Of a DNA stretch of 32,000 nt, positions 1,613-27,905 are shown piece by piece. The position numbers were made by a program, and so were the translations under genes. The DNA comes from Edaphobacter aggregans (lineage in GTDB: Bacteria; Acidobacteriota; Terriglobia; Terriglobales; Acidobacteriaceae). The notes beneath the pieces were generated by a model. The model worked only from the letters and a program-made list of their open reading frames with translations. It was not told the origin of the DNA and did no database searches. The stretch is from NCBI RefSeq assembly GCF_003945235.1, contig NZ_RSDW01000001.1, forward strand, positions 3,840,001-3,872,000, given 5' to 3'. How positions within the stretch are numbered: the stretch's first letter is position 1; every line of letters starts with the position of its first letter.

Positions 1613-1684
1613 CGGGGTACTTCTCCTTATGGAAAGGATACGACGGTGCGGCGGAAAAGTTCCGTCGAGTGGGATGATGGTGGG

Positions 1685-2617: not shown

Positions 2618-2628
2618 CACTGAAGACG

Positions 2629-4747: not shown

Positions 4748-4867
4748 CGGTTTCCTTTGCTTTGGATGGTACATTTTTCGCCGAACTTGAGGCTTGATTT
4801 GCGTGGCTGTGTGGCCGGATGCCGCGCCCGCGCCGTGTGTCCGTTTGCGCTGGTAGACTTTAAGTCT

Positions 4868-10297: not shown

Positions 10298-10428
10298 AGC
10301 TGGCTTAGAATGCTCGGCAGCATGGTCACCCGCGATCTTGTTTCTCTAGGAAATCCGAACGAAACAGTTCTGAAAAATTATGTCGAGCGAAAGCTGACCT
10401 TGGCCGTCTGTCTGCATAGAAGGGACTT

Positions 10429-12331: not shown

Positions 12332-12360
12332 ATAAGGCGAAGCATAGCCATTCGTAATGG

Positions 12361-12419
12361 TGCCCAGGGCTGGTTGAGAGTTCTCTATGTGCGGACTCAT
12401 ATACTGGCCCTGGGCATTT
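12361..12419 (+). terminator. possible terminator hairpin after the ECF operon
   Basis: Perfect 10-bp inverted repeat TGCCCAGGGC (12361-12370) / GCCCTGGGCA (12407-12416) followed by TTT. The loop is unusually long (36 nt), so confidence is low. Confidence 0.35.
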
Positions 12420-12469
12420 GTTAAGGGTGCTGCTATCGCGTTTTATCTTTCTGCTGGAGTGCTGGGCTT

Positions 12470-13702
12470 TTGCGAAGTCTGACGACGGCTGTTGAGGAGC
12501 GGACCGATCGTGCGCGTTGGCGCATGCTCGGATTGATCTGCGCTGGCGTTGTGCTGTGCATGACGACTTGGTTTTCTGCGACGGCGATTACACCGGAGCT
12601 TGTTCAGCTTTGGCGGTTGTCCGCCGGGCAGGTCGCATGGCTGACCAATGCGGTTCAACTAGGCTTCGTTACCGGGGCGCTGCTTTCAAGTTTTGTCAGT
12701 CTTCCAGATTTGATTCCGCTGCGTAGATTGATGGGAGTGAGCGCGCTTGTGGCGGCGTCGGCAAATCTGTGTCTGCTGTGGGTGCCTTCCGTAGCTTTGC
12801 TGCTGGCGGCGCGTTTTGTTACGGGCGTGGCGCTTGCGGGAATCTATCCGCCGGCTCTTAAGCTGATATCGACGTGGTTCGTGCGTGGACGAGGCACAGC
12901 GTTGGGGATGGTGATCGCGGCGTTGACGCTGGGGTCGGCGCTGCCTCATCTCGTGCGATTTCTGACGGATCGTGTTAATTGGCAGGCTGTGGTGGTGGCG
13001 GCATCGGTGTGCACGCTGGCGGGTGCGGGTTTGATGGTGTTCTTTGCTGCGGAGGGGCCGTTTCCGTTCAGCAGGGCTGTGTTCAATCCGCGTTATGTCG
13101 GGGTGGTGCTGCGAAATCGTCCGCTCGTCCTGGCCAATCTTGGCTACCTGGGGCATATGTGGGAGTTGTATGCCATGTGGGGATGGTTTCTGGCGTTTGT
13201 GCGGGCGGCGTCTCCGCATCTCGGTTTGGCTGGGACTAAGACTGCGTCGCTTGTGACTTTTGCGGTGATCGCCTCGGGGATTGTTGGAGCAGTGTTGGGT
13301 GGAGTGCTGGCTGATCGTACGAGTCGTCCTTTCGCCGCCGGGTTGATGATGACGTTGTCCGGCCTGTGTGCTTTGGCGATTGGTGTCGTCTTCGACGGGC
13401 CACTGTGGCTGTTTCTGCTGATTGCTGTTCTGTGGGGGATTACAGTCATTGGCGACTCGGCGCAGTTTTCGGCGATGGCGACGGAACTCAGCGACCCGAG
13501 CTATGTCGGAACTGCACTCGCGCTTCAACTCGGTCTCGGCTTTGCGCTGACGCTTGTGTCGATCCGCTTCACGTCAGTGCTTGCGGCGCACATCGGCTGG
13601 CGCTGGAGTTTCCTGCCGTTGGCAGTTGGGCCTGCCGTTGGGGTGGTTGCGATGGTGCTTTTGCGCCGTTTGCAACAGGGCGGGGTTCTCAACAAAGGCT
13701 AG
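12470..13702 (+). CDS. MFS transporter
   Basis: 410 aa with ~12 hydrophobic helices and an MFS-like loop 2-3 region (ARFVTGVALAGIYPPALKLISTWF..RGRGTALG). Start is TTG 12470 as listed; ATG 12524 is an alternative. Confidence 0.85.
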   Translation: MRSLTTAVEERTDRARWRMLGLICAGVVLCMTTWFSATAITPELVQLWRLSAGQVAWLTNAVQLGFVTGALLSSFVSLPDLIPLRRLMGVSALVAASANLCLLWVPSVALLLAARFVTGVALAGIYPPALKLISTWFVRGRGTALGMVIAALTLGSALPHLVRFLTDRVNWQAVVVAASVCTLAGAGLMVFFAAEGPFPFSRAVFNPRYVGVVLRNRPLVLANLGYLGHMWELYAMWGWFLAFVRAASPHLGLAGTKTASLVTFAVIASGIVGAVLGGVLADRTSRPFAAGLMMTLSGLCALAIGVVFDGPLWLFLLIAVLWGITVIGDSAQFSAMATELSDPSYVGTALALQLGLGFALTLVSIRFTSVLAAHIGWRWSFLPLAVGPAVGVVAMVLLRRLQQGGVLNKG

Positions 13703-13719
13703 CTAGGTATACCGAAGAA

Positions 13720-15597
13720 CTATTCTGCCTTGCCTACGGAGTGGTCCTTATAGACCTTTTGGAACTGGGTGAAGGCTAGCTTCTTTTTGCCGTCTTCGGA
13801 GATGAGGCCCTTGCGGTTGAAGCCGTCCTGCAACTTAGGAATGTTGCGAGTGGGCGAGCGGAAGTCCATCAAGACCCAGGGAACGAGGCCACGTACCTGA
13901 GGGATCTTGCTGATCATGACGAACTGATGTTCGTAGACGTTGACTTGTTGCTCTTCGGCCCAACGCTCGTCTTTGCCGCCGTGGACTCCTTGCTTTGCTT
14001 CGGCTCCGAACTCTGAAATGAGAATGGGTTTCTGCGGGAGCGTCCACTTGATGTTGTCGGCGTCTTCGGGGCGACCCTCGTACCAACCGACGTATTCGTT
14101 CTGGCCTACGACGTCGAGAGCGTTGGCCAGTGGGTCGTCCTGGACCATCTCGTTCCCTTTGGCGTGTGGGCCGATGAGGGCGGAGGTGATGGGGCGCGTG
14201 GGGTCGAGTTTGCGTGCTTCGTTGGCTAGGTTAGTGAGGAATTCTGTGCGCGTGGGGTTGTTGGGCGTCTCGTTGGAGACGGACCAGAGGATGACCGAAG
14301 CTTTATTGCGATCGCGCCGGATCATCTCGTTGAGCATGTAGGTGGCTTTGGCGTAGACCTCAGGTTTTTCGAAGGAGATATGCTGCCAGAGCGGAATCTC
14401 TGACCAGATCATGATGCCTTCGCGATCTGCGGTGCGCTCCATGCGTTCATCGTGCGGGTAGTGGGCTAGACGAACGAAGTTGGCGTTGAGGTCTTTCAGG
14501 AAGCCGAAGATATTTTTGACGTCTTCGTCGCTGTAGGCGCGGCCGGTGCGATAGGGGGCCTCGGCATGCATGTTGGCGCCCTGCAGAAAGATGGCTTTGC
14601 CGTTGAGGAGGATGCGCGTGCCGTCGACGCGGATGTCGCGGAAGCCGATGTCGTCGGTGAGCTTGTCTTCACCGGAGGCGAGTTCGACTTTGTAGAGCTT
14701 TGGCGTCTCGGGTGACCAAAGATCGAGCTTGCTGGCCTTGATGTCGAAGGGTGCGCGTCCTTCTGCGTCTGTTTTGAGGGTGGTGTTGACGCCTGCCTCG
14801 GGTATGCGGAGGGTGACAGGGGTTCCGGCCGTGGCGCCTACGACGTGAACGTAGCCGGTCAGGTTGGTATTGGAGGGGGAGAAGGTGCCTTCGTGCTTGA
14901 GGTGGACGTCGTAGTCGTCGATGAACTGCGTGGGAAGCGTGACGAGGGAGATATCGCGGGTGAGGCCGCCGTAGTTGAACCAGTCGATGCCGACGGAGGG
15001 AATGCCGTCGACTTCGCGGGTGGAGTCCACGGCGATGACGACGAAGTTGGTGCCGGGTTTGAGCGCTGCGGTGACTTCGCAGTCGAACGGGGTGAAGCCG
15101 CCTTCGTGATCGCAGATGCGCTTCTGATTGACCCAGACAAAGGACTTATAGTTCGCAGCGCCGATGTGGAGGAAGGTGCGCGTGTTGGGCCTGGGCTGGA
15201 AGTCGAAGTCGCGTTGATACCAGATGACTCCTTCGTAGCGAAAGAGAGTGGGGTCCTGGGTGTTCCAATCGCCGGGGACTTTCAGGGTGGGAGCAGTGGC
15301 GAAGTCGTATTCGTCGTTATGCGGACCGCTATTGATATTTGGGTGGGTGTTCAGGGCGTAGCTGTTGTCGCGGACCTTGCCTGCAGGTGTGTAGAGGGCT
15401 CGCGCTGGCGGCTGGTCGACGAGGTAGTGCCAGTCTCCATTCAGGGACATGACGGAGCGGTGGTCGACGCCGACGAGAAGCGTCTTAAGTGGTTGCTGCG
15501 CAAGCGCCGGCAGGGCGGCGGCATACCAGACAAGGGAAATAAATGTTTTACGGCAGCCCAGTTTTCCACCTGCGAAGACCTTCGAGAAATAAGTCAT
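13720..15597 (-). CDS. glycoside hydrolase family 2 (beta-glucuronidase/beta-galactosidase-like), exported
   Basis: Signal peptide; sugar-binding and Ig-like N-domains. TIM-barrel motifs NFVRLAHYPHDE, ILWSVSNE (acid/base Glu) and LISEFGAE (nucleophile Glu). GAGGGTG RBS. Confidence 0.88.
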   Translation of the reverse strand: MTYFSKVFAGGKLGCRKTFISLVWYAAALPALAQQPLKTLLVGVDHRSVMSLNGDWHYLVDQPPARALYTPAGKVRDNSYALNTHPNINSGPHNDEYDFATAPTLKVPGDWNTQDPTLFRYEGVIWYQRDFDFQPRPNTRTFLHIGAANYKSFVWVNQKRICDHEGGFTPFDCEVTAALKPGTNFVVIAVDSTREVDGIPSVGIDWFNYGGLTRDISLVTLPTQFIDDYDVHLKHEGTFSPSNTNLTGYVHVVGATAGTPVTLRIPEAGVNTTLKTDAEGRAPFDIKASKLDLWSPETPKLYKVELASGEDKLTDDIGFRDIRVDGTRILLNGKAIFLQGANMHAEAPYRTGRAYSDEDVKNIFGFLKDLNANFVRLAHYPHDERMERTADREGIMIWSEIPLWQHISFEKPEVYAKATYMLNEMIRRDRNKASVILWSVSNETPNNPTRTEFLTNLANEARKLDPTRPITSALIGPHAKGNEMVQDDPLANALDVVGQNEYVGWYEGRPEDADNIKWTLPQKPILISEFGAEAKQGVHGGKDERWAEEQQVNVYEHQFVMISKIPQVRGLVPWVLMDFRSPTRNIPKLQDGFNRKGLISEDGKKKLAFTQFQKVYKDHSVGKAE

Positions 15598-15821
15598 ACC
15601 ACTTCACCCTCTGGCAGGAATTGAAGGAATTTTGAATGAAACACGAAAGAGGGCGAGACGGATAGCAGCACAAGCAACCGAACGTCACACACCTTGGCCC
15701 ACCGGGCAATCGTACCAGACGGTTGTCGTGGCTTTCCATTGAGCATCAGGGCGCGTAGCGCGTTTCGTGCAGAGGAGGGAGTCAGCTTACGAAGTGGGTT
15801 CGGTGGTAGTCTGACCGAAGT

Positions 15822-16970
15822 ATGGGTTTTTCGGTACGGTTTCGGATGGGGTTGCGGGCGCTGCTGGGTGTGGCGCTGCTGGGGGCTTCGGCTGGGCTTG
15901 CGGTAGGGCAGGCAGGACAGACGACGCTGGTGGTGCCTCCTGCTCCGCTATTGCCTGTGCAACTTGGCGATTGGGTGAAGGGCGACGCGCCACCGGCGGA
16001 TAGTGTGGCGCAAGCCGATGATCCGGTGCTGGCCGAGTCTGGGCTGAAGCGGCAGGAGCGTGCGGTCTATCACTCGGGGGCGAATCCTCAGCAGACGATT
16101 GCGGTGACGGCGTATCAGTTTGTCGATGCGACGGGAGCTCATTCAGCTTACAGCTACTATCAGCGGCCGGGCGGGTATAAGGGACCGAAGATCGGTGATG
16201 AGACGGCGAATGGATTTCTGTTCCGTAGCGGGACGACGCTGGTTTCAGTTGACTCGAAGCTTCCTGTTGATCAGACCGCTATGGTTCTGAGGGATCTGGA
16301 GACGCATCTGCCGAAGGTGGGTGGGCCTAAAGGACTTCCTCCGCTGCTGCCAACGTATCTGCCAGCGAAGGGACTGCAGACGGACTCTGTGAAGTATGCG
16401 TTGGGGCCATTGAGCTACAAGGCGATGGGCGGCATGCTGCCGGGAGAGATCATCGGGTTCGACAAGGCGGCTGAGGTGGTAACGGCGAAGTATGCAGGGC
16501 AGGGTACGCTGACGCTGCTGCTGTATCCGACGCCTCAGATTGCTGGGGAGCATGGGCGCGCGATCGTGGAGGAGGTCAATCGAATAGGGCCTCCTGCAGG
16601 GACGGTGTTGCTACGGCGCGAGGGTCCCCTAGTTCTGATGACGACGGGAGCGTGGGACGCTGCCGAGGCGAAGCGGATGGTCGAGGGTATCCATCTGCGG
16701 AATGAGCTGACGTGGAACAAGCCGGTGCCACTGGAGTTTCATGCCGAGGTGCTGAAGACGTACAGCTTGCTGACGAGCATTGCCATCTTCTGCGGAGTGG
16801 GAGCGCTGGCGGCGGTGATACTCGGACTGTTCCTGGGCGGCGGACGGGCGGCGATTCGGGTGCTTCAGGGTAAGCCAGCCGCGTCGGAGCCGGAGTTTTT
16901 GCGGATCGATCTGAGCGGAAGAGTGGCGGCAATTCATCCCGAGGGTATCGAGGGAGAGGCTCAAAGGTAG
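15822..16970 (+). CDS. exported hypothetical protein with C-terminal TM anchor
   Basis: Signal-like N-terminus (LRALLGVALLGASAGLAVGQA), a C-terminal TM helix (LLTSIAIFCGVGALAAVILGLFLGG) and native G-ending codon bias. Start is 15822 or 15846. No family recognised. Confidence 0.65.
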   Translation: MGFSVRFRMGLRALLGVALLGASAGLAVGQAGQTTLVVPPAPLLPVQLGDWVKGDAPPADSVAQADDPVLAESGLKRQERAVYHSGANPQQTIAVTAYQFVDATGAHSAYSYYQRPGGYKGPKIGDETANGFLFRSGTTLVSVDSKLPVDQTAMVLRDLETHLPKVGGPKGLPPLLPTYLPAKGLQTDSVKYALGPLSYKAMGGMLPGEIIGFDKAAEVVTAKYAGQGTLTLLLYPTPQIAGEHGRAIVEEVNRIGPPAGTVLLRREGPLVLMTTGAWDAAEAKRMVEGIHLRNELTWNKPVPLEFHAEVLKTYSLLTSIAIFCGVGALAAVILGLFLGGGRAAIRVLQGKPAASEPEFLRIDLSGRVAAIHPEGIEGEAQR

Positions 16971-17171
16971 ATTCAGGTGGGGTTGCGGGGCTCCGATGTG
17001 TGCACTGGGGATGGTGCAGGCGGGGGGCTAAGCGGCTGATTCGATAGTGCTTTGATGGTTGGTCGGACCGCTAAAAGCGAATGTATGGCGAATGCATAGA
17101 AGCATGTTGTAGGTTTAGTAACCCTCGTAACTGCATAGCAAATAATGACTTACGATTGTCTAGTTTTAGCC

Positions 17172-17200
17172 TTGACACGTCATTTTGCCAAACTTAGTAT
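17172..17200 (+). promoter_or_regulatory. sigma-70-like promoter candidate
   Basis: TTGACA (17172-17177), a 17-nt spacer, then TAGTAT (17195-17200), in a locally AT-rich intergenic stretch. Confidence 0.4.
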
Positions 17201-17252
17201 TTCGCCAGAAAGTTCTGATGGCTTTGCCTCCGTTGGAACTATTCTCCCTAAA

Positions 17253-17291
17253 GAAGAGGCCGCCCTGTTGCCGGGCGGCTTCTTCGCGTTT
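17253..17291 (+). terminator. strong GC-rich hairpin (terminator/attenuator candidate)
   Basis: 13-bp stem GAAGAGGCCGCCC (17253-17265) / GGGCGGCTTCTTC (17273-17285) with one G-U pair and a 7-nt loop, followed by GCGTTTGTG. It lies ~50 nt downstream of the predicted promoter. Confidence 0.45.
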
Positions 17292-17436
17292 GTGCGGAAG
17301 ACGGAAGGAGGTCGTTACCAAAGTGGGAGAGTGGGGGTCGAGAACTGGCGATAGAACTGTGACGGGGAGGCAAGAGCGTCGATAGAGAGAGTGTCGAAAG
17401 GCGCCGAAGAGGCTCTTTTTGCAGGAGGGACACTCG

Positions 17437-17568
17437 ATGATCGCGGTTCTGATGGTGGTGCTGTATCTGGTTCTTATCCTGATGCCGTGCCTGATCGCGG
17501 CGAGCATCGATCTTGAGGCCGAGGAAGCGAATGCAATGGCCCCAATGGAGGAGGGTGACCGGGGTTGA
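17437..17568 (+). CDS. candidate 43-aa membrane micro-protein upstream of GH28
   Basis: ATG 17437 is preceded by AGGAGGG (17423-17429, 7-nt spacing). Product MIAVLMVVLYLVLILMPCLIAASIDLEAEEANAMAPMEEGDRG has one TM helix plus an acidic tail. It falls below the ORF-track size cutoff. Confidence 0.45.
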   Translation: MIAVLMVVLYLVLILMPCLIAASIDLEAEEANAMAPMEEGDRG

Positions 17569-17613
17569 TCGATTGTGCTAGTTTGGCCTCTGCGGTTTCA
17601 GGAGGTCGGACCA

Positions 17614-19071
17614 ATGATGTGGCGACAGGTGCGTGTTCGGGTCGGAGTGGCTTTGTGGGCGGGTTGCACTTGGCTTTCGGCGGCCTCGCAGGATACGCGG
17701 CAGGTCGTAGAGCCGAAGATTCCGCCGGCTTGCGTGCAGTTGGAGGCGAAGCTTAAGACCGTCGATGACAAGGTTGCTCCGGCTGACGAGTCGAATCTGG
17801 ATACTGAGAGGATCCAGAAGGCTCTGGATGGGTGCGCGCCGGGGAAGGCCGTGGAGTTGAAGACCGCTGGCGGCAACAATGCCTTTTTGACAGGACCGCT
17901 GGAGATGCGGACCGGCGTAACGCTGCTGGTGGACAAGGGAGTGACTCTATTCGGGTCGCGGGATGCCTCTCTTTACGAAGTGACGGGCGAAGGGGTGACG
18001 CCGGGATTGTGCGGGACGATTGCGACGGGTGCTCCGCCGCCGGTTTTTCCGGCTCCACAGCGTCCGGCTCCGGTGCGCGGGGGGTGCAGACCGCTGATCT
18101 CGGTGATTAATGCCAAAGATGTCGGGATCATGGGGGACGGCGTGATCGACGGACGGGGCTACGCGAAGATTCTGGGCAAGGACTATAGCTGGTGGGAGAT
18201 GGCACGCAAGGCCGAGCCGAAGAATGAGCGGTACTTTACGACCAGGATGATTGTTGCCAGCCATGCCGACGGGCTGGTGATGTATCGGATTACGCTGCAT
18301 AACTCTACGAACTTCCACGTAAGCGTGAATCAGACGAATGGGTTCACAGCCTGGGGCGTGCATCTGTTGACGCCGACGACCCGCGGCGTGGATGCACGAA
18401 ATACGGATGGCATCGATCCGGGGAGTTCGACGAACGTGACGGTTGCGCATAGCTGGATCGACAATGGCGACGACAACATCGCCATCAAGACGGGCGTGTC
18501 GCACATGAGCGTGCTGGACAATCATTTTTTCAGCGGGCACGGCATGTCGATCGGGAGCGAGACGTTTACAGGACAGAGCTTTCTGTTGGTGGACGGCCTG
18601 ACGTTGGACCATACGACCAGCGGTATCCGGATCAAGAGCAATGTGACGCGCGGCGGTTCGGTGCACGATCTGGTGTACCAGAACATCTGCATGCGCGGCG
18701 TGAAGAATCCGATTGCGATCAGCCCGTATTACACGAACCAGACGACGGAGCCATACGAAGATCCGAAGTATACGGGAGATCGGATTCCGGACTACAAGGC
18801 GATTACGATTCGCAATCTGACGAGTACGACTCCGGGAGACGTTCTGATTGCCGGCTTGAACGACGAGCACCAGACCGAGATTGCCCTGGATAATGTGCAC
18901 ATCGCCGACATTACGAAGGCACAGGTCCACGGCCACTTTGCGACGGTAACGGTGGGGCCTGGCGCGACGAACATAGACTTCAGCGGGACTGATATCAAAG
19001 TCGTTGCGACGAAGGGAGAGAAGAGCGGCGCGGCGTATAGCTGTGATGGAAGGTTCGTGCCAATGCAGTAG
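17614..19071 (+). CDS. glycoside hydrolase family 28 (polygalacturonase-like), exported
   Basis: ATG 17614 with AGGAGG 8 nt upstream; signal peptide MMWRQVRVRVGVALWAGCTWLSAAS. GH28 signature set NTDGIDP, GDDNIAIK, SGHGMSIGSE and IRIKS. Confidence 0.9.
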   Translation: MMWRQVRVRVGVALWAGCTWLSAASQDTRQVVEPKIPPACVQLEAKLKTVDDKVAPADESNLDTERIQKALDGCAPGKAVELKTAGGNNAFLTGPLEMRTGVTLLVDKGVTLFGSRDASLYEVTGEGVTPGLCGTIATGAPPPVFPAPQRPAPVRGGCRPLISVINAKDVGIMGDGVIDGRGYAKILGKDYSWWEMARKAEPKNERYFTTRMIVASHADGLVMYRITLHNSTNFHVSVNQTNGFTAWGVHLLTPTTRGVDARNTDGIDPGSSTNVTVAHSWIDNGDDNIAIKTGVSHMSVLDNHFFSGHGMSIGSETFTGQSFLLVDGLTLDHTTSGIRIKSNVTRGGSVHDLVYQNICMRGVKNPIAISPYYTNQTTEPYEDPKYTGDRIPDYKAITIRNLTSTTPGDVLIAGLNDEHQTEIALDNVHIADITKAQVHGHFATVTVGPGATNIDFSGTDIKVVATKGEKSGAAYSCDGRFVPMQ

Positions 19072-19134: not shown

Positions 19135-19210
<76 letters not shown>

Positions 19211-19244
19211 TTCCTTTCAATAATTTAGAGCTATTTTTCGTAGG

Positions 19245-19284: not shown

Positions 19285-20340
19285 TCAACCCGCCTTCAAA
19301 AGGTGTAGCGAGTTGGAGTGATTTCTGCGATTGACTACCGCTGCAGCCCCGCTGGTATCGGGGTGCAGATACTTCATGGTCGTCTTGATGTCCTCGTGTC
19401 CCATGAGTTCCTTAACCTCGACTACGTTCAGGCCCTCGGCGAGCATGTCAGTGGCGAAAGTGTGACGGGCACAGTACAGTTTCAGGTCCGACGAGATCGG
19501 CTGCAGCTTTTGTTTTGCGTTCGCGAGATTGGCGGCCTTGACAGTCGCTCTCCATTGTTTGGAGATGGTCGTCAAGTGCCCGCACTTCGCCCGCCTCGAT
19601 GGGAAGATCCAAGGGCTGCCGCTAGACTCGCGCAGGCGCAGTAGATCGCGCATGCGATCACTCAATGGAACGTAGCGCTTGGATTTGAAACTCTTACCGT
19701 ACGGCACCAAGACGACGGAGCGGGCCCAAAAGATGTGCTCCTTGCGGATCCGCATGGCTTCTTCGGGGCGCATTCCAGAATCCATCATGATAATCAGGAC
19801 ATCAGTGAGCGGTTGGGAGGCGTGCTTAAGCAGCAATGCCTCGGTGGATGATTCGACCAGCGCCGTACGCCCGTGCTCCTCGAGCAGTTTGATGCGCGGT
19901 GCGGCCCGCATTATGTTCCAGTCCACCGCGATCCGCAGCATACGGTGCAGAGTGCGGAGGGCCCGGTTGGCGTTGGAGGCACTGTGGGGGAAAGTGAGGA
20001 TTGCGGCGTCGCTGGTACCGATCTGATCGATACGCATTCCTGCCACTCTCGTCCCTTCCAGCATCTTCCATCCCCCGTGATAGTAGCGTTTCGTGTCGAG
20101 GTCCAGTTGGCCCGAGACCGCCTGCGCGTCCACAAATTCAAGGAAGCGATTTGAAAAGTCCCGGAGAACTGGTGCCCGCCGCGAGTTCAAGCTGCCACCA
20201 TTGTTGCGGATATCCGCAATGCGGAGAGCCTCGAAGGTGTTGGCACGGGACTTAACCGTCTCCTTGGTGGTGCCCCGATACTTCCGACCATCGATCATGA
20301 ACTCGTAGTGCCAGTATTTACCGCGTTTAGTAATGGCCAT
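19285..20340 (-). CDS. tyrosine-type site-specific integrase
   Basis: Start at ATG 20340 (MAITKRGKYWHYEF...) with a GGAGAG RBS. The C-terminal catalytic region is YCARHTFATDMLAEGLNVVEVKELMGHEDIKTTMKYLH (R, HxxR, Y). The gene is adjacent to the tRNA 3' end. Confidence 0.92.
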   Translation of the reverse strand: MAITKRGKYWHYEFMIDGRKYRGTTKETVKSRANTFEALRIADIRNNGGSLNSRRAPVLRDFSNRFLEFVDAQAVSGQLDLDTKRYYHGGWKMLEGTRVAGMRIDQIGTSDAAILTFPHSASNANRALRTLHRMLRIAVDWNIMRAAPRIKLLEEHGRTALVESSTEALLLKHASQPLTDVLIIMMDSGMRPEEAMRIRKEHIFWARSVVLVPYGKSFKSKRYVPLSDRMRDLLRLRESSGSPWIFPSRRAKCGHLTTISKQWRATVKAANLANAKQKLQPISSDLKLYCARHTFATDMLAEGLNVVEVKELMGHEDIKTTMKYLHPDTSGAAAVVNRRNHSNSLHLLKAG

Positions 20341-20341: not shown

Positions 20342-20551
20342 CTATCTCTCCAGTGTTGCCCGCACGGATGGAAAGCGTCGGCCAGTTTCAACATACGCAA
20401 GTATGTCAACGGCATCATACTTCACTCGAGCCTTGGGTCCGTTGCCCATCTTGATGTAGGGTGGTCCGTCGCCGACGCAACGCCACCGTCGCAGCGTCCC
20501 CATGGGGGTCGCAAGGATTTCGGAGACCTGTCTCTCTGTGAGCAGCTGCAT
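20342..20551 (-). CDS. AlpA/Xis-type helix-turn-helix DNA-binding protein (putative excisionase/regulator)
   Basis: MQLLTERQVSEILATPMGTLRRWRCVGDGPPYIKMGNGPKARVKYDAVDILAYVE is a typical HTH_17/AlpA-like excisionase fold signature. Its stop is 1 nt from the integrase ATG. The start may instead be ATG 20635. Confidence 0.75.
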   Translation of the reverse strand: MQLLTERQVSEILATPMGTLRRWRCVGDGPPYIKMGNGPKARVKYDAVDILAYVETGRRFPSVRATLER

Positions 20552-21220
20552 CTCCCGTACCTGCTGAACTCGTTTTGTGCCGAACGGCTTTCGCCCTTCT
20601 CTCCCCCTGGCGCACTTATCCTCATGTGGCATCATGTGGGGTAATACCGTCTCCAGAGCCGGGACCCTCGATATTGCCTTCAGATCGTTAGACACTAGGA
20701 CCATGGAGCAGATGGCTATCGACCACATCCTGTTCAGCGACGCATCTCCACGCAAAGGTCCACCAAGTCTTCGTCGCATCAAATGCACGGACATGGCATG
20801 GGCGCATGGTCTCGATGACGGTGCAGATTTTGCGCGATTCGCTGCTCCTCCGGGTTAGCGAGGGTCTTCGGAGTGTTCGATTCGGCCCCGGTGATATCTG
20901 GCTAACATTTGACCGTCAGTATTTTCTTCTGTGTTTGCTTCGCGTGGGACGACGGTGAAACCATGAACGGCCATTCTTGAAATGCCCGCCCTCCGCTATA
21001 TATCACGACCAGATCGATGAGATCTCGAGAGCACACACATAATCCAATATGCCTTCACTGACGACGGTCCTGACGAGTGCCCGGTGAGGCAGTGTTCGCC
21101 TCTCGGGAATGCATCGTTGACTTGCAATCAATAGAGTCGCCTCCTGGGTCGTAAGGCCGATATGAGGGCCAACTCTACCTATTGGAGAAACCATGTCTGG
21201 TCGTTAGGAGACGTCTCGCG

Positions 21221-21907
21221 CTAGCGGCTGGAGAGACCGCGCTCAATTGCAGCGAGCAGTTCATCCCGCCCCAAGGTTCCGAGCTGCAGTTCGAGCTCGT
21301 CCGCGACTGATTCAACTGCGGCCCATACCGAATCGTTGTTTAAGATTGCGATGGCCTTGGCCTCCCACAGAAGCAACTGGTGATCGCGGACCTCATTGGA
21401 AAACTCAAGGGCAGAGTGGCACATAACCCGAACCAACAACTGGTTAACACGCCAGTAGTCACCGACGCAGCCTTCATCAATGATGATGTTGGACTCTGCA
21501 CGCAGGTCGACAAGAGATTCTCCACGGATCTTAGCCTCTGCCGCCGGACCCGCAATGTACATGACGGCATACTCGCCAGCACGTACCCTAGCTTCCCGAG
21601 TCCGGAATACGAAATTGGCGGTGTGAACAAACTTTAAGACGCGCCGATCGAGCTGCGTGACATCATTATCGATGTACATCGGCCTAAAACCGAGGAGGTG
21701 GGCGACCACCGCATGTGCGGCTTCGTGGTACCGCTTAAGCTTCCAATGGTAGTTGCTCTCTTCGAGTTCCGACATCTCTTCTAACGACAAAGGGTTCGTA
21801 CCATCGACCACGGTTTCATCCCCTACCGGTTTCGACTCGGGGGATGTAACAGGTTTAGGATCGGACAGGTGGGCGTGCAGACTGACCTCTTCAAGGTTCA
21901 GTGACAT
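21221..21907 (-). CDS. stand-alone FtsH-type (peptidase M41-like) zinc metalloprotease domain protein
   Basis: 228 aa, AGGAG 9 nt upstream. YHEAAHAVVAHLLG (HExxH, cf. FtsH HEAGHA), then MYIAGPAAEAKIRGE (cf. FtsH GGRAAEE) and GCVGDYWRVNQLLVRVM (cf. FtsH GAxNDxxxATxxARxMV). No AAA+ module and no TM segment. Confidence 0.65.
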   Translation of the reverse strand: MSLNLEEVSLHAHLSDPKPVTSPESKPVGDETVVDGTNPLSLEEMSELEESNYHWKLKRYHEAAHAVVAHLLGFRPMYIDNDVTQLDRRVLKFVHTANFVFRTREARVRAGEYAVMYIAGPAAEAKIRGESLVDLRAESNIIIDEGCVGDYWRVNQLLVRVMCHSALEFSNEVRDHQLLLWEAKAIAILNNDSVWAAVESVADELELQLGTLGRDELLAAIERGLSSR

Positions 21908-22096
21908 CTCAAAGGACTCCTATTCGGTTTTGTATGCTCAGCGCCTCGAGCACATGAGGGGTAATACACCGACAGGTGTCCGAATGCGTATATCTTGGAA
22001 ACTATTTTTCGAAAGAGCGAAGCTGTCGGGACAGGTGCTCTGATGGTGCCGAATAAAGGATTTCTGGTTTGATCGTGGGTGCAGCGACCTCCGGGC

Positions 22097-23806
22097 TTAC
22101 GTTTTCTTCCAGGTCTCCCCTACTGCCGTCTCTACCTCGACGGGAACTTGGCCGCTGAGCAGTTGATCGGCGGCACGGACCATCGTATCCACGACGGCTT
22201 GTTCGACTGCCGTAGCTTGGTTCACCGGAACCTCCAACACCAGTTCATCGTGCACCGGCATCAGGAGCATGGCTGCTACGTCCTCCGGTAGCGACGCAAT
22301 CGCCAATGCAAGAATGTCCGCTCCGGTTCCCTGGTTTTGGTAATTTAATGCACGTCGAAGGTCATTCAGTATTGCAAACGGGCGGCCCGACAGGGTACTC
22401 GTCTCATAGACCTTGACGCCATGACGACCGGGATTGACCAACCTTGCTTCATATGGATTCCAGAGAACGCATGCGTTCGGAATGACCTTGCGGAACCGTT
22501 CGAAATTGGTCCACCAATGCCAGATCCGAAATTCGGGATAGAGCTCAAACCAATCGTGACGGGCTTGTGCGGCTTCCTCTAAGCTCCATGTCAGCCCGAA
22601 CGTGGCGATACCACTTCGGTGTAAGCCTCCTGCACCCATGCCATAGAGCAAGCCGAAGTTGACCGCCTTCGCTCGTTGTCGTTCTTCATGTAACTGTGCC
22701 TTCAGCTCACTCTGAGTTTGACTATCTCTTGCCGCGAGCCATTCGACCGGATTCGCTCCGCAGTCGATCCTTCCTTGGCGTCGGGCCATATCGATGCCTG
22801 TAACCATGTGGGGGTCGAGGCCACGGCGGAAGATCGATATCATCATTTGAATATCGCTGCAAAGGACGGCCTGGGATACGGCAGGTATAGCCGCTCTATA
22901 CCAATCGAGTTTTTCGGCATCAGGCTCCGGCGGACAGAGGAGCTGTTGATTAGATCGCATACCCGCTCTAGCGAGAGCCACCCACCAGTTGGTGGGTTCT
23001 TCCTGAACCCGTAGGCGAAGATCGGCCCGCTCAGCCAGAACCGCAGCTATCCGCAACTCGATCGCGGCATAGTCGGCAGAAAGGATGAGATGGCCAGCCC
23101 GAGCGCGAAAAAGGTCTCTGAATCGAGGATCGCGTGGCACGTTTTGAACTGTGGGCCAGGCGCTCGTGGTACGCCCCGTCGCCGCTGCGAAACCAATTAA
23201 TGAATGGAGTCTTCCATCGAACTTTGCCGCACGTTGGTATTGCTCCAGTAAGCGGACCCTGAACTTGTTCTCCTTTATCGCCTCCAGCATGGGGCCCGGT
23301 GGTAGATTCTCGATGTTCTGGGCATTCAACCCGTCCAGACCTGTGCTATGCGAACTAACCTGGTTCTGAGACAGAGAGATGCCGTGGGTTGCTACATGTT
23401 CGGCCAGTGCACGCTTCAGTTCCGCAGTTTCGCCGATCCGGGTGTCAGTCAGCGGTTTCCCCAGAGCGGAAAATTCAGAAAATTTCGTTAGATCTTGTAC
23501 AGACCGCTCAAGATCGTCGATGCACTTGGATCGGATCTTCAAACCCGCTTCCACATCAAACGGGACGCCTTTGCTGTGGGCTTCTGCGAGCCGAATAGCT
23601 GCCCGGCTATATGAGAAATACCAGGGAGCCTGGTGTCGGATGTAGGAGGGCATGTCCAACACGCTTGTGTCCGCTATCAAGGTCCGGAGAATCCGGATCG
23701 GCAGTTTAACTCTTTTCGCCAGGTAGGCGCGGTGGTGGGCGGAGAGAACACTGACACACCAGTTCCTATGGGCTTGATATTCCTTGTCAGGCACTCCCAG
23801 CCTCAA
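22097..23806 (-). CDS. family A DNA polymerase-like protein, polymerase domain only (no exonuclease domain)
   Basis: GRLHSLIGFAAATGRTTSAWPTVQNVP; motif A LSADYAAIELRIAAVLAE; LDPHMVTG; motif B RQRAKAVNFGLLYGMG; motif C MPVHDELVLEV. The listed start is TTG 23806; GTG 23794 or ATG 23653 are alternatives. Confidence 0.85.
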   Translation of the reverse strand: MRLGVPDKEYQAHRNWCVSVLSAHHRAYLAKRVKLPIRILRTLIADTSVLDMPSYIRHQAPWYFSYSRAAIRLAEAHSKGVPFDVEAGLKIRSKCIDDLERSVQDLTKFSEFSALGKPLTDTRIGETAELKRALAEHVATHGISLSQNQVSSHSTGLDGLNAQNIENLPPGPMLEAIKENKFRVRLLEQYQRAAKFDGRLHSLIGFAAATGRTTSAWPTVQNVPRDPRFRDLFRARAGHLILSADYAAIELRIAAVLAERADLRLRVQEEPTNWWVALARAGMRSNQQLLCPPEPDAEKLDWYRAAIPAVSQAVLCSDIQMMISIFRRGLDPHMVTGIDMARRQGRIDCGANPVEWLAARDSQTQSELKAQLHEERQRAKAVNFGLLYGMGAGGLHRSGIATFGLTWSLEEAAQARHDWFELYPEFRIWHWWTNFERFRKVIPNACVLWNPYEARLVNPGRHGVKVYETSTLSGRPFAILNDLRRALNYQNQGTGADILALAIASLPEDVAAMLLMPVHDELVLEVPVNQATAVEQAVVDTMVRAADQLLSGQVPVEVETAVGETWKKT

Positions 23807-23908
23807 CGAGAATGCGGCCCGATAAAAATCGTCTGCCTATCGACGCCCTTCATTTATGCCATTCCGCGTTCGTATTCGGACCGCCCACATGAAAAGAAGC
23901 CCACCGTA

Positions 23909-24727
23909 GTGGATCACGGTACGTTGCTTATGGTCGTTCTCGTCGCCATCGCATTGTTGATGGGACTTCGGAGCGACTGGGCCCTTCGAATCGTAACGAT
24001 TGGGGTTGGTCTTCCAACCTTTTTCGTGATGCGCAACATGATCAAGAGGTATCGTGACTGGTCGCTGAAGCTTAGTGGGTCGACGGTGCCCCGCATAGAG
24101 CTTCCATCCGGGTCTCTATTGTTCCTACGCTTCCTTGCCGACGAAGCTACTTTCGCGCTCATTACTTTCCAGTCCATTCAATATGCATTTGTCCGTATCG
24201 CGAAGGCGCAGGCACAGCTGATCGAGAACACCGGCGATATTCTGCGATATCTCGTGGGCAAGTGGAGTGGCTTCTTCTCGCTGTTTCTTATAGTGGCGGG
24301 GGGAACACTTGGCATTATCCTGCTTTATTTAGTCTCTCTGATCAGCGTGTTTGTTGGTGCGCGACATCCGGTCGATGCGGACTGGCTTGCACCGCACAAT
24401 CCATACTCCGTTGTTGTCCTTATTCCCGTCATGCTTGCGCCCGCAATCATCTTCTTTCTCATGTTGCTCACGCTGTTCCTGATGGTCCTCAACATCGTCT
24501 TATACGTCTTGATGCCACTGGCGGGCGCAAAGGTATTCGGCTGGCGCCTTGCGGCATCCTCCGTCTTCAACGAAATCACCGTTGAATCCGCTCCGCTCGG
24601 CACCTGGAGCCTGCTCACACTGTTCCCACTGCCGGGAGATGTCTGGTTGCGGCACAGCATGGGTTACGAAGATCCGAATGCCAGACAGCAAGTGGTGACA
24701 TTTATCATCGAAAATCTCAAGGCGTAG
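23909..24727 (+). CDS. polytopic membrane protein, unknown function
   Basis: Divergent from the polymerase-like gene. About 5 TM helices (LLMVVLVAIALLMGL, IVTIGVGLPTFFV, FFSLFLIVAGGTLGIILLYLVSLISVFVG, VVVLIPVMLAPAIIFFLMLLTLFLMVLNIVLYVLMPLAG) plus soluble loop and tail regions. Start is uncertain (GTG 23909 or ATG 23930, both with weak RBS); the listed 23633 start is antisense to the polymerase gene. Confidence 0.5.
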   Translation: MDHGTLLMVVLVAIALLMGLRSDWALRIVTIGVGLPTFFVMRNMIKRYRDWSLKLSGSTVPRIELPSGSLLFLRFLADEATFALITFQSIQYAFVRIAKAQAQLIENTGDILRYLVGKWSGFFSLFLIVAGGTLGIILLYLVSLISVFVGARHPVDADWLAPHNPYSVVVLIPVMLAPAIIFFLMLLTLFLMVLNIVLYVLMPLAGAKVFGWRLAASSVFNEITVESAPLGTWSLLTLFPLPGDVWLRHSMGYEDPNARQQVVTFIIENLKA

Positions 24728-25806
24728 ATGCCGAAATCAACACGGTTCCATCCTCGAATCTTCTTGGACGCCGAAAATCCTACCGGAATCGCGTACCTTT
24801 CTGAAAGGTCTTCGCGAGGTCGTTGAACGATAGGTTCACGAAGGTCCACAACTGCGCCTGTTTACTCCTGCGGATTGGGTGCTTTGTTTGTTTCCGTAAC
24901 TGCCCCGATAATGGCTCGCTGAACGATCGGGAAATCGGGTTGCCGGATGACATAGATTCAAAGATGCTTGCCAGCAAAACCCCAACTACATCTCTTTACC
25001 GAAATCGATCTTGGTTGTCAGACCCGCCAGATCTAATACCCGACTTGCACACCGCCTACTCAGCAAACTCATGAAGGTTGGAGATTTTTCCTCCGGCGGT
25101 ATAAACGATACGAATCATGCGAACAAATCGCCGCCATGGGGTTGCCCTGTTTTCGCCTGTACTCCTGATCAGTTCCCGGAGTTGATGGCCGCAGCGTTGA
25201 CATGTCAGGATATCTCTCAGTGGGCCGCAGCGTGGGATATCGCACTGGTTCGCGGAGCCCTTATTCGACAGATTTCGGTGGTCCGCAATCTGTAGGTTGG
25301 GAAACAGCAGACGTCCACGAAAGCGCCTATCGATATAGGCGGCAGAACCGGTTCGACGCGATAAAAAGGGCCGTGAAATGACGCGAACAGTAGCGAGCAG
25401 TCGGTGACTACAATTCGCTTCGCTTTTCAATAATTCGTGGCTTGTCTTCGCGAATTCTATTGACTTTCCTGAAGCTGCAGAGCAATATTCCCAGCTAAGC
25501 TATCTACTCCTCCCTCTTACAGCTTCCAGCGTCATCCCCCGGAATTTGGGCTATGGGCCACTTATCCGTTTAGAAAGTCTCGACCCTCGGTGGAAGTGCC
25601 ATGGAATATCGTCACCGTCTTATGCGGATTCCGAGAACCCCTCGAAGCAGCGAGTCCGGATGCGCCGTGCCTCGGAGGCTTCTGGGACTGATGCGCCTCA
25701 AGGAAGATGCTCCAACCAATCTCGGAACGAATCTGAGCTTATCGTATGCTCGTGGGTCGGCCCTGCAACGATTCTCCCAACAGTTCGCGAAATTGGAGGG
25801 AGAGAG

Positions 25807-27453
25807 ATGAGCGCGTTTACTTCAACAAAATATTCGTCGATACTTCTCTTTCTTATCCTGTTTGCATGCGCTTCCCAGGTTATCGCACAGGTCTATCAGA
25901 TCACTGATCTCGGCACACTGCCCAGTCAAACTAGCAGTTCTGCTGTGGGAATTAATCAGCTTGGGCAAATCGCCGGAAGTTCGGGGAATCACGCATTCCT
26001 CTACTCGAATGGAACGATGACGGACCTGGGCTTTTTGCCAGGCTCGAATCAGGCGAGCGCTTCCGCAATCAACAACAGCGGGCAAATTGTTGGAACTTAT
26101 GGCCTAACAACCTTGCAAGGTCGAACGCTGGGATTCCTCTGGGATAGCGGCGTCATTTCGGATCCCTTCAATTCCGCCGCCTACATTAATGGCCAATTTG
26201 AAACGCAAGGCTTCGAGCCGGTCGCTATAAATGACAACGGCCAGGTCGCGGTAAATCTAGCCTCGAACGGCAATTCTACTGCCTTACTCTGGCAAGTCTC
26301 CGGAAACCAAATCACGACGCTCTCCTCTGGAGGCAGCACCGCGTACGCGATCAACAATGTCCCGCAGGTATCTCTCGTCGATAGGCCGTCCTACGCATTT
26401 GGCGCGATTTGGAGTTTAAGCGGAACAACTGTCTTGCCGACCTTATATCCCCCCTTGGCAGGATATGGACCGACGCCATATGGAATCAACCAGAACGGAC
26501 AAGCCGTCGGGGAGTCTTATGCCAATAGTCAGGCGCAGATACATGCCTTCCTGTGGAGCAACGGTACGATCAGCGATCTCGGTACACTTGGGGGCGCGAA
26601 CAGCACAGCCAGGGCAATCAACAGTACAGGACAGCAGATCGTCGGAGATTCCGACCAGAATCCGAATACGGCAACTACCCAGAATCGGCGTGCATTTCTT
26701 TACGCCAACGCCAACATGTTGGACCTCAACTCGCAGGTCGCCAATATTTTGGGTTGGGAGCTGCAATCAGCTGTCGGCATCAATGACTCAGGGCAAATCG
26801 TAGGGAATGGCACCTACCTTGGTAATGCGCACGCTTTTCTCTTGACTCCTATAATTCAGGGCACCGTATCTCCAATACAGGGCGGCAATGCCGGCAATGT
26901 TACGTTGAACGTGTTTTATCCGGGAACCATGCCTACTTCAGTGGATCTGGCGTGTGCTGGAGGCACGACGATTGTGGGCGGTGTTCCGGTTCCGATAAGT
27001 TCCAACTTCGTCCAGGTGACCTTTAATCTGACCGGAGTAACTCCTGGTGCCTGCAGCGTTGTTCTCAACGAACCGGGAGGGAGTATTCTCACTACTCCCA
27101 ATGCTTTCACGGTAGTTCAGGGCGGTGCACCCGACATCCGAATCAGCGTCGCAGGATTTCCTCAACTTCGAGCGGGGTTGCCGGAGACCTACTATATCGT
27201 GGCCGAGAATGTTGGGAACGTCGATTCCGGTTCTGTTCGGATCTGGGTTTCGTTCCCAAGCTTTCTGCAATGGCAGCCAGCTGGTGTGCAGCCAAGCTCA
27301 AGTGGCGCAATGAACGGAAATACTTTTGTAGCTTTCGACATTCTTCCGAAGGCGAGTTCTAATAATCCAATTCCTTTTCTGCTGACAGCTCCCGTCAGCT
27401 CAAATTTGGTGCATAAGCCGTTTCAGATTCAGGCATGGAAGCTGGGGCAATGA
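25807..27453 (+). CDS. exported HAF-family repeat protein with C-terminal CARDB-like domain
   Basis: ATG 25807 with GGAGGG 6 nt upstream; signal peptide MSAFTSTKYSSILLFLILFACASQVIAQ. Repeated units such as AVGINQLGQIAGSSGNHAFLYSNGTMTDLGFLPGSNQASASAINNSGQIVG match the extracellular HAF repeat pattern. Confidence 0.8.
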   Translation: MSAFTSTKYSSILLFLILFACASQVIAQVYQITDLGTLPSQTSSSAVGINQLGQIAGSSGNHAFLYSNGTMTDLGFLPGSNQASASAINNSGQIVGTYGLTTLQGRTLGFLWDSGVISDPFNSAAYINGQFETQGFEPVAINDNGQVAVNLASNGNSTALLWQVSGNQITTLSSGGSTAYAINNVPQVSLVDRPSYAFGAIWSLSGTTVLPTLYPPLAGYGPTPYGINQNGQAVGESYANSQAQIHAFLWSNGTISDLGTLGGANSTARAINSTGQQIVGDSDQNPNTATTQNRRAFLYANANMLDLNSQVANILGWELQSAVGINDSGQIVGNGTYLGNAHAFLLTPIIQGTVSPIQGGNAGNVTLNVFYPGTMPTSVDLACAGGTTIVGGVPVPISSNFVQVTFNLTGVTPGACSVVLNEPGGSILTTPNAFTVVQGGAPDIRISVAGFPQLRAGLPETYYIVAENVGNVDSGSVRIWVSFPSFLQWQPAGVQPSSSGAMNGNTFVAFDILPKASSNNPIPFLLTAPVSSNLVHKPFQIQAWKLGQ

Positions 27454-27902
27454 CGATGCTTAAGACCCTCGCCCTGACATGTCGTGCTATGCAGTTTGCT
27501 TTTTTTGCCTCCTCCGTGAGCTTTTCGATGCTTGCCTATGCTCAAGATCCGAACGTCTTCACGGTCAATCAAGGCGGCGCTCCCAACATCCAGATCAGTA
27601 TTGCCGGATTCCCGCAGCTTAGGGCGGGGCTGCTTGAAACTTGCTATGTCCTGGCCGAAAATCGTGGCAACGACGACTCCGGCATCGTTCGGATTTGGGT
27701 AGCGTTTCCGGACAACCTGCAATGGCAGTCCGTAGGCGTGCAGCCCAGCTCTATCGGTGACATGAATGGAAACACGTACCTCGCCTTCGACATCAGTCCG
27801 GCACTCGGTGGCAATGTTCCAATCCCTTTCCTACTAGCTGCTCCTTTCAATTCCTATCTGGCACACAAACCCTTTCAGATTAGCGCGTGGGTAAATCAAC
27901 AA
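27100..27902 (+). repeat. tandem paralogous ~350-bp coding modules (27100-27450 and 27549-27902)
   Basis: The last 113+ aa of the HAF protein and the mature part of the next ORF align without gaps. By hand alignment, 80 of 113 residues are identical (e.g. QGGAPxIxISxAGFPQLRAGL.ET.Y..AEN.GN.DSG.VRIWV.FP..LQWQ..GVQPSS.G.MNGNT). Confidence 0.8.
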
Positions 27903-27905
27903 TGA
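27450..27905 (+). CDS. small exported CARDB-like protein (paralogue of the HAF protein C-terminus)
   Basis: ATG 27450 overlaps the upstream TGA (ATGA, 27450-27453). Signal peptide MTMLKTLALTCRAMQFAFFASSVSFSMLAYA. The remainder is the duplicated module. Confidence 0.7.
   Translation: MTMLKTLALTCRAMQFAFFASSVSFSMLAYAQDPNVFTVNQGGAPNIQISIAGFPQLRAGLLETCYVLAENRGNDDSGIVRIWVAFPDNLQWQSVGVQPSSIGDMNGNTYLAFDISPALGGNVPIPFLLAAPFNSYLAHKPFQISAWVNQQ

Follow-up and report, generated by a model that had tools for sequence, protein, structure and literature searches.

Among the family-A DNA polymerases described so far, two groups are among the closest to the gene considered here. The first comprises clusters #8 and #10 of Czernecki et al. 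(2023, PMC10201439), the Aquificae-like or 'Hot Spring' polymerases, which have Phe at position B3 (NFG). Cluster #8 is 'Hot Spring 1', and cluster #10, 'Hot Spring 2', comes mainly from Acidobacteria; about 96% of the latter keep the exonuclease residues, and the paper mentions no fingers insertion for it (PMC10201439). The second is CcPol of SCCmec, which has kept three exonuclease-domain helices, binds the OB-fold protein MP and primes DNA with the helicase Cch2 (Bebel et al. 2020, PMC7581432); according to Rice 2023 (PMC10061031), such primases arose repeatedly by partial N-terminal truncation. Here we analyse a family-A polymerase open reading frame (ORF) at positions 22097-23806, on the minus strand, of a 32,000-nucleotide stretch of Edaphobacter aggregans DNA (positions 3,840,001 to 3,872,000 of contig NZ_RSDW01000001.1), referred to below as the window. 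The enzyme has its best sequence and fold neighbours in cluster #8 (Aquifex pyrophilus Pol I, 8jrb, and apPOL/PREX). With a probability of about 85%, the ORF is a deletion remnant of a mobile-element polymerase of ~804 amino acids (aa), most likely a non-functional relic and not a minimal enzyme.

The polymerase and its missing N-terminal region

The ORF is real and comprises 569 codons counted from TTG 23806. As the first-pass annotation had noted, its start is ambiguous: TTG 23806, GTG 23794 (which gives the 565-aa protein P0121) and ATG 23653 (Met52) are all present, and a fourth start, GTG 23554, was chosen in one source annotation (the 485-aa protein P0001). The product is a genuine family-A DNA polymerase. 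It matched PF00476 (DNA_pol_A) with an E-value of 1.4e-40 and 139.9 bits, above the Pfam gathering threshold of 34.3, and it has the palm, fingers and thumb fold; the match to the PHROG 17 DNA polymerase reached 5e-56. Among PDB sequences, phmmer ranked Aquifex pyrophilus Pol I (8jrb, 7e-30) first, ahead of KlenTaq, the apicoplast polymerase and Klenow. An AlphaFold2 model of the window protein, built on a family alignment of 52 sequences (the window protein and 51 relatives), had a predicted local distance difference test score (pLDDT) of 90.5 and a predicted template modelling score (pTM) of 0.89, and in Foldseek it matched Pol I-type structures at a probability of 1.00, 8jrb again being the best (1e-18). 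The positions of the polymerase features are as follows.

22097..23806, minus strand: 5'-truncated family-A DNA polymerase gene, equivalent to residues ~231-804 of full-length relatives
23699..23734, minus strand: Exo III remnant, HRAYLAKRVKLP, residues 25-36; Tyr kept, catalytic Asp replaced by Lys
23135..23182, minus strand: ATGRTTSAWPTVQNVP segment of the palm, before motif A, residues 209-224
23051..23080, minus strand: motif A, SADYAAIELR, residues 243-252; catalytic D245 and E250
22826..23026, minus strand: fingers insertion of ~60 additional residues, helical and specific to the clade, which separates the motif-A helix from the DPH helix
22640..22681, minus strand: motif B (O-helix), RQRAKAVNFGLLYG, residues 376-389; R376, K380, F384 (Phe at position B3) and Y388
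22229..22255, minus strand: motif C, VHDELVLEV, residues 518-526; H519, D520 and E521

The first-pass annotation had reported that the catalytic motifs are intact. We found the strings that it quoted at these coordinates, and the individual residues named for motifs A, B and C (D245 to E521) are invariant across the 52 aligned sequences, the window protein included. Within the retained polymerase part, the window protein deviates at one of the 63 positions conserved in at least 90% of the relatives and at three of the 93 positions invariant in its 18 closest relatives, a test in which the full-length proteins themselves range from 0 to 9. Since it deviates no more than they do, a recombinant fragment could well extend primers; to judge from these alignments, the polymerase fragment is undamaged and might be catalytically competent if produced. 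A weak 34-bit PADLOC match to 'RTasPolA' covers the C-terminal polymerase core only; it was judged to reflect generic PolA similarity, and a defence-system reading of it was set aside.

A homolog search across 5.8 billion proteins returned 609 homologs, the closest of which (P0002, P0003, P0007, P0009 and others) are 802-805 aa long and share 53-57% identity with the window protein at 100% query coverage; several of them carry a Pfam match to a 3'-5' exonuclease. The aligned relatives range from 759 to 993 aa, and in all 51 of them 181-347 residues precede the position of the window protein's first residue. When four full-length relatives were compared with the window by tblastn, their residues 231-803 aligned to 23815-22103, and residues 1-230 had no match anywhere in the 32 kb. 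The first-pass annotation had described a polymerase 'reduced to the polymerase domain'; the reduction is no feature of the enzyme's design, since 51 of 51 relatives have the N-terminal region and the gene ends at a junction, 23819|23820, which is described below.

The missing region is a folded domain in the intact proteins. PF01612 covers residues 132-276 of full-length P0007, and the model of full-length P0002 (pLDDT 93.3) has a five-stranded alpha/beta N-terminal domain. The target-normalised template modelling score to Aquifex Pol I (exonuclease and polymerase domains) was 0.75 for P0002 and 0.62 for the window protein, and a Foldseek comparison of a full-length relative with 8jrb gave 4e-25 at a score of 0.75. 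The full-length proteins of the clade also have an N-terminal extension of ~60 residues. Neither this extension nor a DnaQ-like exonuclease-fold domain was found in the ORF or in the window as a whole. What the ORF keeps is the last ~45 residues of the exonuclease domain, its final helices, and in residues 1-40 of the window model the pLDDT is only 62-82, whereas the corresponding segment of the full-length model reaches 94-97. The ~242 residues before motif A, which the earlier annotation had aligned to the thumb, thus do not all belong to it: residues ~1-45 are these exonuclease helices. As regards the proofreading DEDDy motifs (Exo I DxE, Exo II NxxxFD and Exo III YxxxD), the alignment columns showed that the window protein lacks the segments of Exo I and Exo II and that its Exo III segment has Lys in place of Asp. 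This agrees with the earlier statement that no functional proofreading domain is present; the annotation had named a degenerate exonuclease fold with Exo I-III motifs as evidence against itself, and the degenerate Exo III segment that is retained speaks against it in part.

Decay of the exonuclease motifs was also observed in the closest intact proteins. The Acidobacterial full-length relatives nearest the window (P0002-P0018) have KVE, SIE, DLM or GVT at Exo I instead of DxE, and the Exo III Asp is replaced by Ala, Ser or Thr. Their branch retains the whole exonuclease domain together with several invariant non-catalytic residues, and the conserved domain is presumably structural. Distant members of the clade (from Acidithiobacillus, Acidiphilium and a phage contig) keep the canonical DxE, NxxxFD and YxxxD. 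On these alignments the subclade is probably non-proofreading even when intact. In a cluster at 90% identity a frameshift-split form of the 804-aa polymerase is found as well (P0123, P0124, P0128), a pair made up of a 210-aa N-terminal piece with an out-of-frame tail (P0124, 11 contigs) and a 609-aa remainder (P0123, 12 contigs); this pair is either a recurrent pseudogene or an exonuclease/polymerase gene fission like that of the S-SBP1-type phages.

Operon and fingers insertion of the intact relatives

In four independent full-length contexts (L001/L002, L003/L004, L087 and L088) a primase-helicase gene of ~772 aa lies upstream of the polymerase gene, and its stop overlaps the polymerase start by 4 nt. 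The domain scan covered the primase-helicases of L001-L004 and L088, all of which contain DUF3854 (PF12965), D5_N (PF08706) and DUF5906/Pox_D5 (PF19263); that of L087 is cut by the contig end and is not annotated. The L001 protein (encoded at L001 986-3301) matches TIGR01613, 'phage/plasmid primase, P4 family', at 2e-77. Where the upstream contig suffices (L001-L004, L088), the operon is headed by an 81-aa ORF resembling a winged helix-turn-helix (wHTH) protein, and integrases lie near the operon in L001 and L003. The elements of the intact relatives are a few kb in size and carry the primase-helicase, an integrase and small helix-turn-helix (HTH) genes. The arrangement of a polymerase directly after an overlapping primase-helicase was found in L001, L003, L087, L088 and L089; it is missing from the window, in which tblastn detected no trace of the primase-helicase or the other operon genes.

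The last of these contexts, L089, is a 32-kb IMG/VR contig whose clade member is more distant (33% identity). The contig is a bona fide phage: besides the polymerase and, directly upstream of it, a primase/helicase, it encodes an endolysin, an exonuclease, a Sak-like annealase, TerS and TerL. When viral contigs were scanned with the family alignment, L089 and L090 were the only clade members. A scan of genome contigs used patterns from the family alignment (AKxxNFGLLY and others) that were too generic, 79 of the 80 loci being unrelated PolAs; the sole clade member was L007, from the contig that also carries L001, and the genome of the window itself was not among the loci. No close relative was found by tblastn among 50,697 GenBank phage records and 72,556 PLSDB plasmids, in which the best identities were 25-27%. 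Taken together with the operon, these contexts suggest that the intact enzyme is the replicative polymerase of phages and small integrative elements and works with a P4/D5-type primase-helicase.

The ~60 extra residues that the first-pass annotation had placed after motif A were confirmed. In the window protein 80 residues separate the motif-A Glu from the Asp of the DPH motif, compared with ~21 by hand count in KlenTaq, and in the HMMER alignment query residues 271-375 (105 aa) lie opposite KlenTaq chain residues 343-366 (24 residues). The insertion that the annotation called unusual is a trait of the whole clade and not peculiar to the window gene. The same stretch measures 82-149 residues in the 51 relatives, with 82-85 in the closest and up to 149 in distant ones, and 91 in the polymerase of phage contig L089. 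The insertion is in two parts: the main one adds ~58 residues ahead of the DPH motif and the other ~22 ahead of the O-helix, and the helices of the main part span residues 263-268, 274-284, 300-315 and 321-327 in the AlphaFold2 model. Compared with all close relatives, the window copy lacks two codons, in frame, at the start of the insertion. When the insertion was searched alone (a 75-residue query against 1.84 billion representative proteins), this polymerase clade was recovered, and the sole other hits, P0138 and P0142, were multi-stretch matches to short parts of the query. On this result the insertion is a lineage-specific elaboration and not a captured domain. It may be a docking site for the co-encoded primase-helicase or have a structural role; more tentatively, it could both mark an undescribed PolA subfamily and dock the D5-type primase-helicase.

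The clade (P0002-P0120 and L089) is a lineage of family-A polymerases from phages and small integrative elements. Its members came mainly from contigs annotated as Acidobacteria and from unannotated metagenome contigs; those of Acidithiobacillus and Acidiphilium are more distant. The clade's conserved helical fingers insertion of 60-125 residues is not seen in any solved PolA, and in its Acidobacterial branch the catalytic residues of the exonuclease were lost repeatedly while the domain was kept. As no close relative was found on a characterised phage or plasmid in the collections searched, the clade is a candidate for biochemical study.

The deletion junction and the state of the gene

The polymerase gene meets a second truncated gene at its 5' end.

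23819..23820, no strand: deletion junction; on its left the polymerase (minus strand) from ~codon 229, on its right a hydrolase/membrane gene (plus strand) from ~codon 113
23820..24727, plus strand: 5'-truncated remnant of a 414-aa gene; the multi-pass membrane C-terminal part is kept and the hydrolase-like part is lost

By tblastn, polymerase homology to the 804-aa relatives ends at about 23815-23818. The last homologous stretch is RAAFSLRLGVPD in the window against MAASLNLQAPD in P0002, in which RAAFSLRL pairs with MAASLNL. On the other side, blastn homology to contig L171 starts exactly at 23820, and the two homologies abut within 2-4 nt. L171 is 93.3% identical to window 23820-25061 and bears the intact 414-aa gene (L171 807-2051), whose product has an alpha/beta-hydrolase-like N-terminus (…IHGTF…GHSHGG…); the window lacks its first ~112-113 codons. 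The hydrophobic ORF 23633-24727 (plus strand) had a single non-self homolog, P0137 (414 aa), among the 5.8 billion proteins. Since the two 5'-truncated genes lie head to head, 3' part against 3' part, a simple deletion between divergent genes accounts for the junction, and an inversion does not. The first possible polymerase start, TTG 23806, lies 13 nt from the junction, which means that the native start has been lost together with its promoter and ribosome-binding site. A crude scan found no sigma-70-like promoter upstream on the minus strand and a terminator-like hairpin at 23921-23902, upstream of the polymerase remnant.

The 364-aa ORF 23633-24727 was also considered as an intact gene overlapping the polymerase; this was rejected, as its first ~60 codons are antisense to the polymerase and the real gene is beheaded at 23820. 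The 272-aa membrane protein annotated in the window is the beheaded remnant of the 414-aa hydrolase-like/membrane fusion. In L171 an ORF for an HNH-like nuclease lies upstream of the 414-aa gene.

A course of events that would lead to this arrangement can be proposed. The intact polymerase of ~804 aa would have begun with a short N-terminal extension, followed by a DnaQ-like 3'-5' exonuclease domain and then by the polymerase domain, which carried the helical fingers insertion. It would have been encoded in an operon of the 81-aa wHTH-like ORF, a Toprim-like (DUF3854)/D5_N/SF3-helicase primase-helicase of ~772 aa and the polymerase, and the polymerase and primase-helicase would together have replicated the excised element or phage genome. 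The element sits in a compositionally foreign island next to a tRNA-Thr gene. A single deletion would then have taken the ~230 first codons of the polymerase, the primase-helicase, anything beyond it and the ~112 first codons of the divergent hydrolase/membrane gene, and the ORF would be the remaining 3' part (~71%) of a replicative family-A polymerase gene. An evolutionarily recent deletion would explain why the catalytic core is undamaged. Since the native promoter and start, nearly all of the N-terminal domain and the partner are lost, the remnant is most likely a non-functional relic, and it is probably not expressed. The first-pass annotation had called the protein a probably active, non-proofreading polymerase; the active site is indeed intact, but the gene has lost its native start, nearly all of its N-terminal domain and its primase-helicase partner.

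Similar decay at another position was found in a metagenomic relative that was assembled twice (L005 and L006); over window 21281-23178 its identity is 96.2%. Homology to the polymerase breaks off within the ATGRTTSAWP segment, at 23178, where a SNF2 helicase gene on the other strand abuts. The remnant in L005 has 349 codons in an open frame, is without the thumb and cannot work as a polymerase. Because this thumbless remnant is still open, an open frame is no argument for function in this lineage. The ratio of nonsynonymous to synonymous substitution rates (dN/dS) was 0.25 between the polymerase copies of the window and L005 (dS 0.11; 346 codons) and 0.40 between the neighbour-gene remnant and L171. 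Both values are consistent with genes that diverged under selection while still whole and then suffered separate recent deletions, and since the divergence largely predates the deletions we set dN/dS aside as uninformative on function. In L005 (352-4517) the genes that the shorter polymerase remnant adjoins encode a SNF2-family helicase of 960 aa and a metallophosphatase, and are possibly a defence-type cargo module; the called SNF2 start codon falls within polymerase-derived sequence.

Several observations weigh against a dead relic. All 569 codons are open, and the conserved positions are kept as well as in the full-length relatives. The dN/dS of 0.25 would be expected either from purifying selection over most of the divergence or from very recent truncations. 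A GAGG stands at a plausible Shine-Dalgarno distance before GTG 23794, and the sequence by itself leaves room for expression of a polymerase fragment. The junction 23819|23820 rests on one 6.15-Mb contig and no second assembly spans it. Isolated Pol I (Klenow) polymerase domains are active. Among natural enzymes, the exonuclease-truncated CcPol polymerases are catalytically active, and PolAs of mobile genetic elements (MGEs) with partly deleted exonuclease domains act as primases (PMC7581432, PMC10061031, PMC10201439).

Most of these points, together with the confident model, would also be expected if the fragment were still made from a fortuitous promoter and an internal start, and if the island or the host retained it as an exonuclease-free polymerase that works alone or as a CcPol-like primase. 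We consider this improbable. CcPol systems are characterised by an operon of the polymerase, a small OB-fold SSB (a protein that binds single-stranded DNA) and a helicase. In the window there is no minus-strand ORF of at least 30 aa between 22097 and 21907, that is, before the next ORF downstream (ORF228, described below), and no ORF of the island has a helicase domain; this check was made by ORF and domain content, and small ORFs were not fold-predicted. The junction also destroys the neighbour gene, unlike a selected gene fission, the 96%-identical relative carries a thumbless remnant that is just as open, no promoter-like site was found upstream, and all other clade members keep the N-terminal domain with its invariant residues. 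A more specific form of the idea strikes us as distinctly improbable, namely that transcription of the beheaded polymerase starts within the neighbour remnant, that translation begins at GTG 23794 or further inside the frame, and that the product acts as a polymerase without exonuclease or as a CcPol-like primase; if it were true, the live fragment would be an example, caught in progress, of the route of Rice (2023) from PolA to MGE primases by partial N-terminal truncation.

Far less probable is a split gene, in which the exonuclease/N-terminal part and the primase-helicase would be encoded elsewhere and assemble in trans, as in the S-SBP1-like T7-type phages. Split exonuclease/polymerase PolA genes do exist (PMC10201439), and the frameshift-split pair of P0124 (210 aa) and P0123 (609 aa) recurs on 11-12 contigs in a related cluster. 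Known fissions, however, have adjacent halves, whereas residues 1-230 are unmatched in 32 kb; the DNA upstream belongs to a beheaded gene of the opposite strand that is unrelated to it, and the geometry of 3' part to 3' part fits a deletion and neither an inversion nor a fission. We give equally little credence to the junction being a chimeric assembly artefact behind which the real genome has a full-length polymerase: no independent contig crosses 23178-23820 (L005 reaches only 23178 and L171 starts at 23820), but the window lies on a 6.15-Mb contig, two independent source annotations call the truncated gene (P0001 and P0121), and the same kind of decay at another position was seen in two separate assemblies (L005 and L006).

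Read as a deletion remnant, the window copy itself does little beyond documenting the decay of such an element. It does hold a caution for annotation, since perfect motifs and a confident model can still belong to a deletion remnant, a status that was seen here only by comparing relatives on both sides of the break.

Genomic island and known systems

The polymerase remnant lies in foreign DNA that begins at a tRNA gene.

19135..19210, plus strand: tRNA-Thr (CGT), found with ARAGORN; target of the integration, where the foreign DNA has its left edge
19285..20340, minus strand: tyrosine integrase, 351 aa from MAITKRG; PF00589 8e-24, PHROG 1 2e-42
20342..20551, minus strand: AlpA/excisionase-type HTH_17 gene; PF12728 E-value 3.5e-4, PHROG 66 excisionase
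21221..21907, minus strand: 228-aa ORF (ORF228) with an FtsH-like YHEAAHAV (HExxH) motif, downstream of the polymerase remnant

The probable start of the AlpA-like gene is an internal Met at 20551 of ORF 20342-20794. The integrase and HTH genes of the window are unrelated to those of L001 and L003, which shows that modules have been shuffled. To the left of the island lie the host genes alaS, an amidase, an MFS transporter, GH2 and GH28. Three plus-strand host genes had a GC skew at third codon positions (GC3 skew) of +0.46 to +0.64; the value was +0.25 for GH28, which borders the island, and -0.52 for the minus-strand GH2. It was about 0 for the integrase, for the polymerase and for the genes as far as 30.2 kb. 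This collapse makes the DNA from 19.2 kb to at least 30 kb, that is, at least 11-13 kb from the tRNA-Thr onward, look recently acquired. Of the features expected of a tRNA-borne island, the tyrosine integrase next to a tRNA gene and the foreign GC3 skew are present, together with the AlpA-like gene, and its right end may lie beyond the window. A search for attL and attR showed that the 3' end of the tRNA is not repeated in the window. An imperfect direct repeat (19215-19240 and 25425-25450, with the 11-nt core TTTCAATAATT) begins 5 nt after the tRNA-Thr and recurs 6.2 kb downstream. It is possibly an att remnant that delimits a 6.2-kb element, or it may be due to chance, the GC3 skew being foreign beyond it as well.

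Overall GC skew in the host part (window 1-19000) was +0.10 to +0.43 per kb and above +0.16 up to 18 kb, a size unusual for a bacterium, and it collapses to about 0 from the tRNA-Thr to the window end. A 253-nt direct repeat (71% identity; 27096-27348 and 27548-27800) runs from the 3' part of the DUF3466-like ORF 25546-27453 into ORF 27435-27905 and points to a duplicated domain module.

ORF228 had no match in Pfam, PHROG or NCBIfam and only three homologs. Two of them, P0133 (L169) and P0135 (L170), stand beside recombinase genes in other elements without PolA, which ruled ORF228 out as a polymerase partner; the third, P0134, is on L005. There ORF228 is frameshifted and 99.5% identical in nucleotide sequence to the window copy, and the adjacent polymerase segment is 4.5% diverged, a difference that suggests a mosaic history.

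When set beside known systems, the window polymerase shares with laboratory-made KlenTaq and Stoffel fragments and with the Klenow polymerase domain the motifs A-C and the thumb, palm and fingers, and Foldseek places them in the same fold. Exonuclease-less Pol I fragments are active in vitro. Unlike those fragments, of which KlenTaq retains a vestigial exonuclease domain, the window protein keeps ~45 residues of that domain, modelled at low confidence. The split exonuclease/polymerase of the S-SBP1-like T7-type phages (PMC10201439) is similar in that the polymerase ORF starts after the exonuclease domain; there the exonuclease gene lies immediately upstream via a frameshift, whereas the window has unrelated DNA upstream and no exonuclease-encoding sequence. 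Like P4-like satellites, the intact relatives pair a P4-family primase C-terminal domain and D5-type helicase with an integrase; unlike them, they bring their own family-A polymerase, and the window copy has lost the primase-helicase.

The resemblance to CcPol is that of an integrative-element family-A polymerase with only the last exonuclease helices left and the polymerase motifs intact. The differences are several: neither a small OB-fold ORF nor a helicase adjoins the window polymerase as in CcPol-MP-Cch2, the island has a tyrosine integrase at a tRNA gene where SCCmec-type elements have a large serine recombinase at rlmH or ssrA, and the truncation is a recent deletion that also cut the neighbour gene, all relatives being full length. 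Position B3 is Phe in the window and Leu in the CHEAPs, the subfamily closest to CcPol, which sets the window polymerase apart from the CHEAP/APEX supercluster as well and ruled out a CHEAP/CcPol affinity.

The Hot Spring enzymes are the nearest in sequence and fold. As in these clusters, B3 is Phe, and the full-length proteins of the clade have an exonuclease and a polymerase domain and no 5'-3' nuclease. The link to a primase-helicase is common to both as well, fused in PREX and adjacent with an overlap in the clade of the window. The clade may or may not be part of cluster #10: its B3 is Phe, as there, and its nearest structures are cluster #8 enzymes. Identity to the Hot Spring enzymes, however, is only 21-23%. 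Query residues 267-372 (106 residues) lie opposite 8jrb residues 397-421 (25 residues), and the clade also has the ~22-residue insertion before the O-helix and the ~60-residue N-terminal extension. Its partner is a D5/P4-type SF3 primase-helicase with DUF3854 and not a Twinkle-like one, and its closest Acidobacterial members have lost the exonuclease catalytic residues that ~96% of cluster #10 keep.

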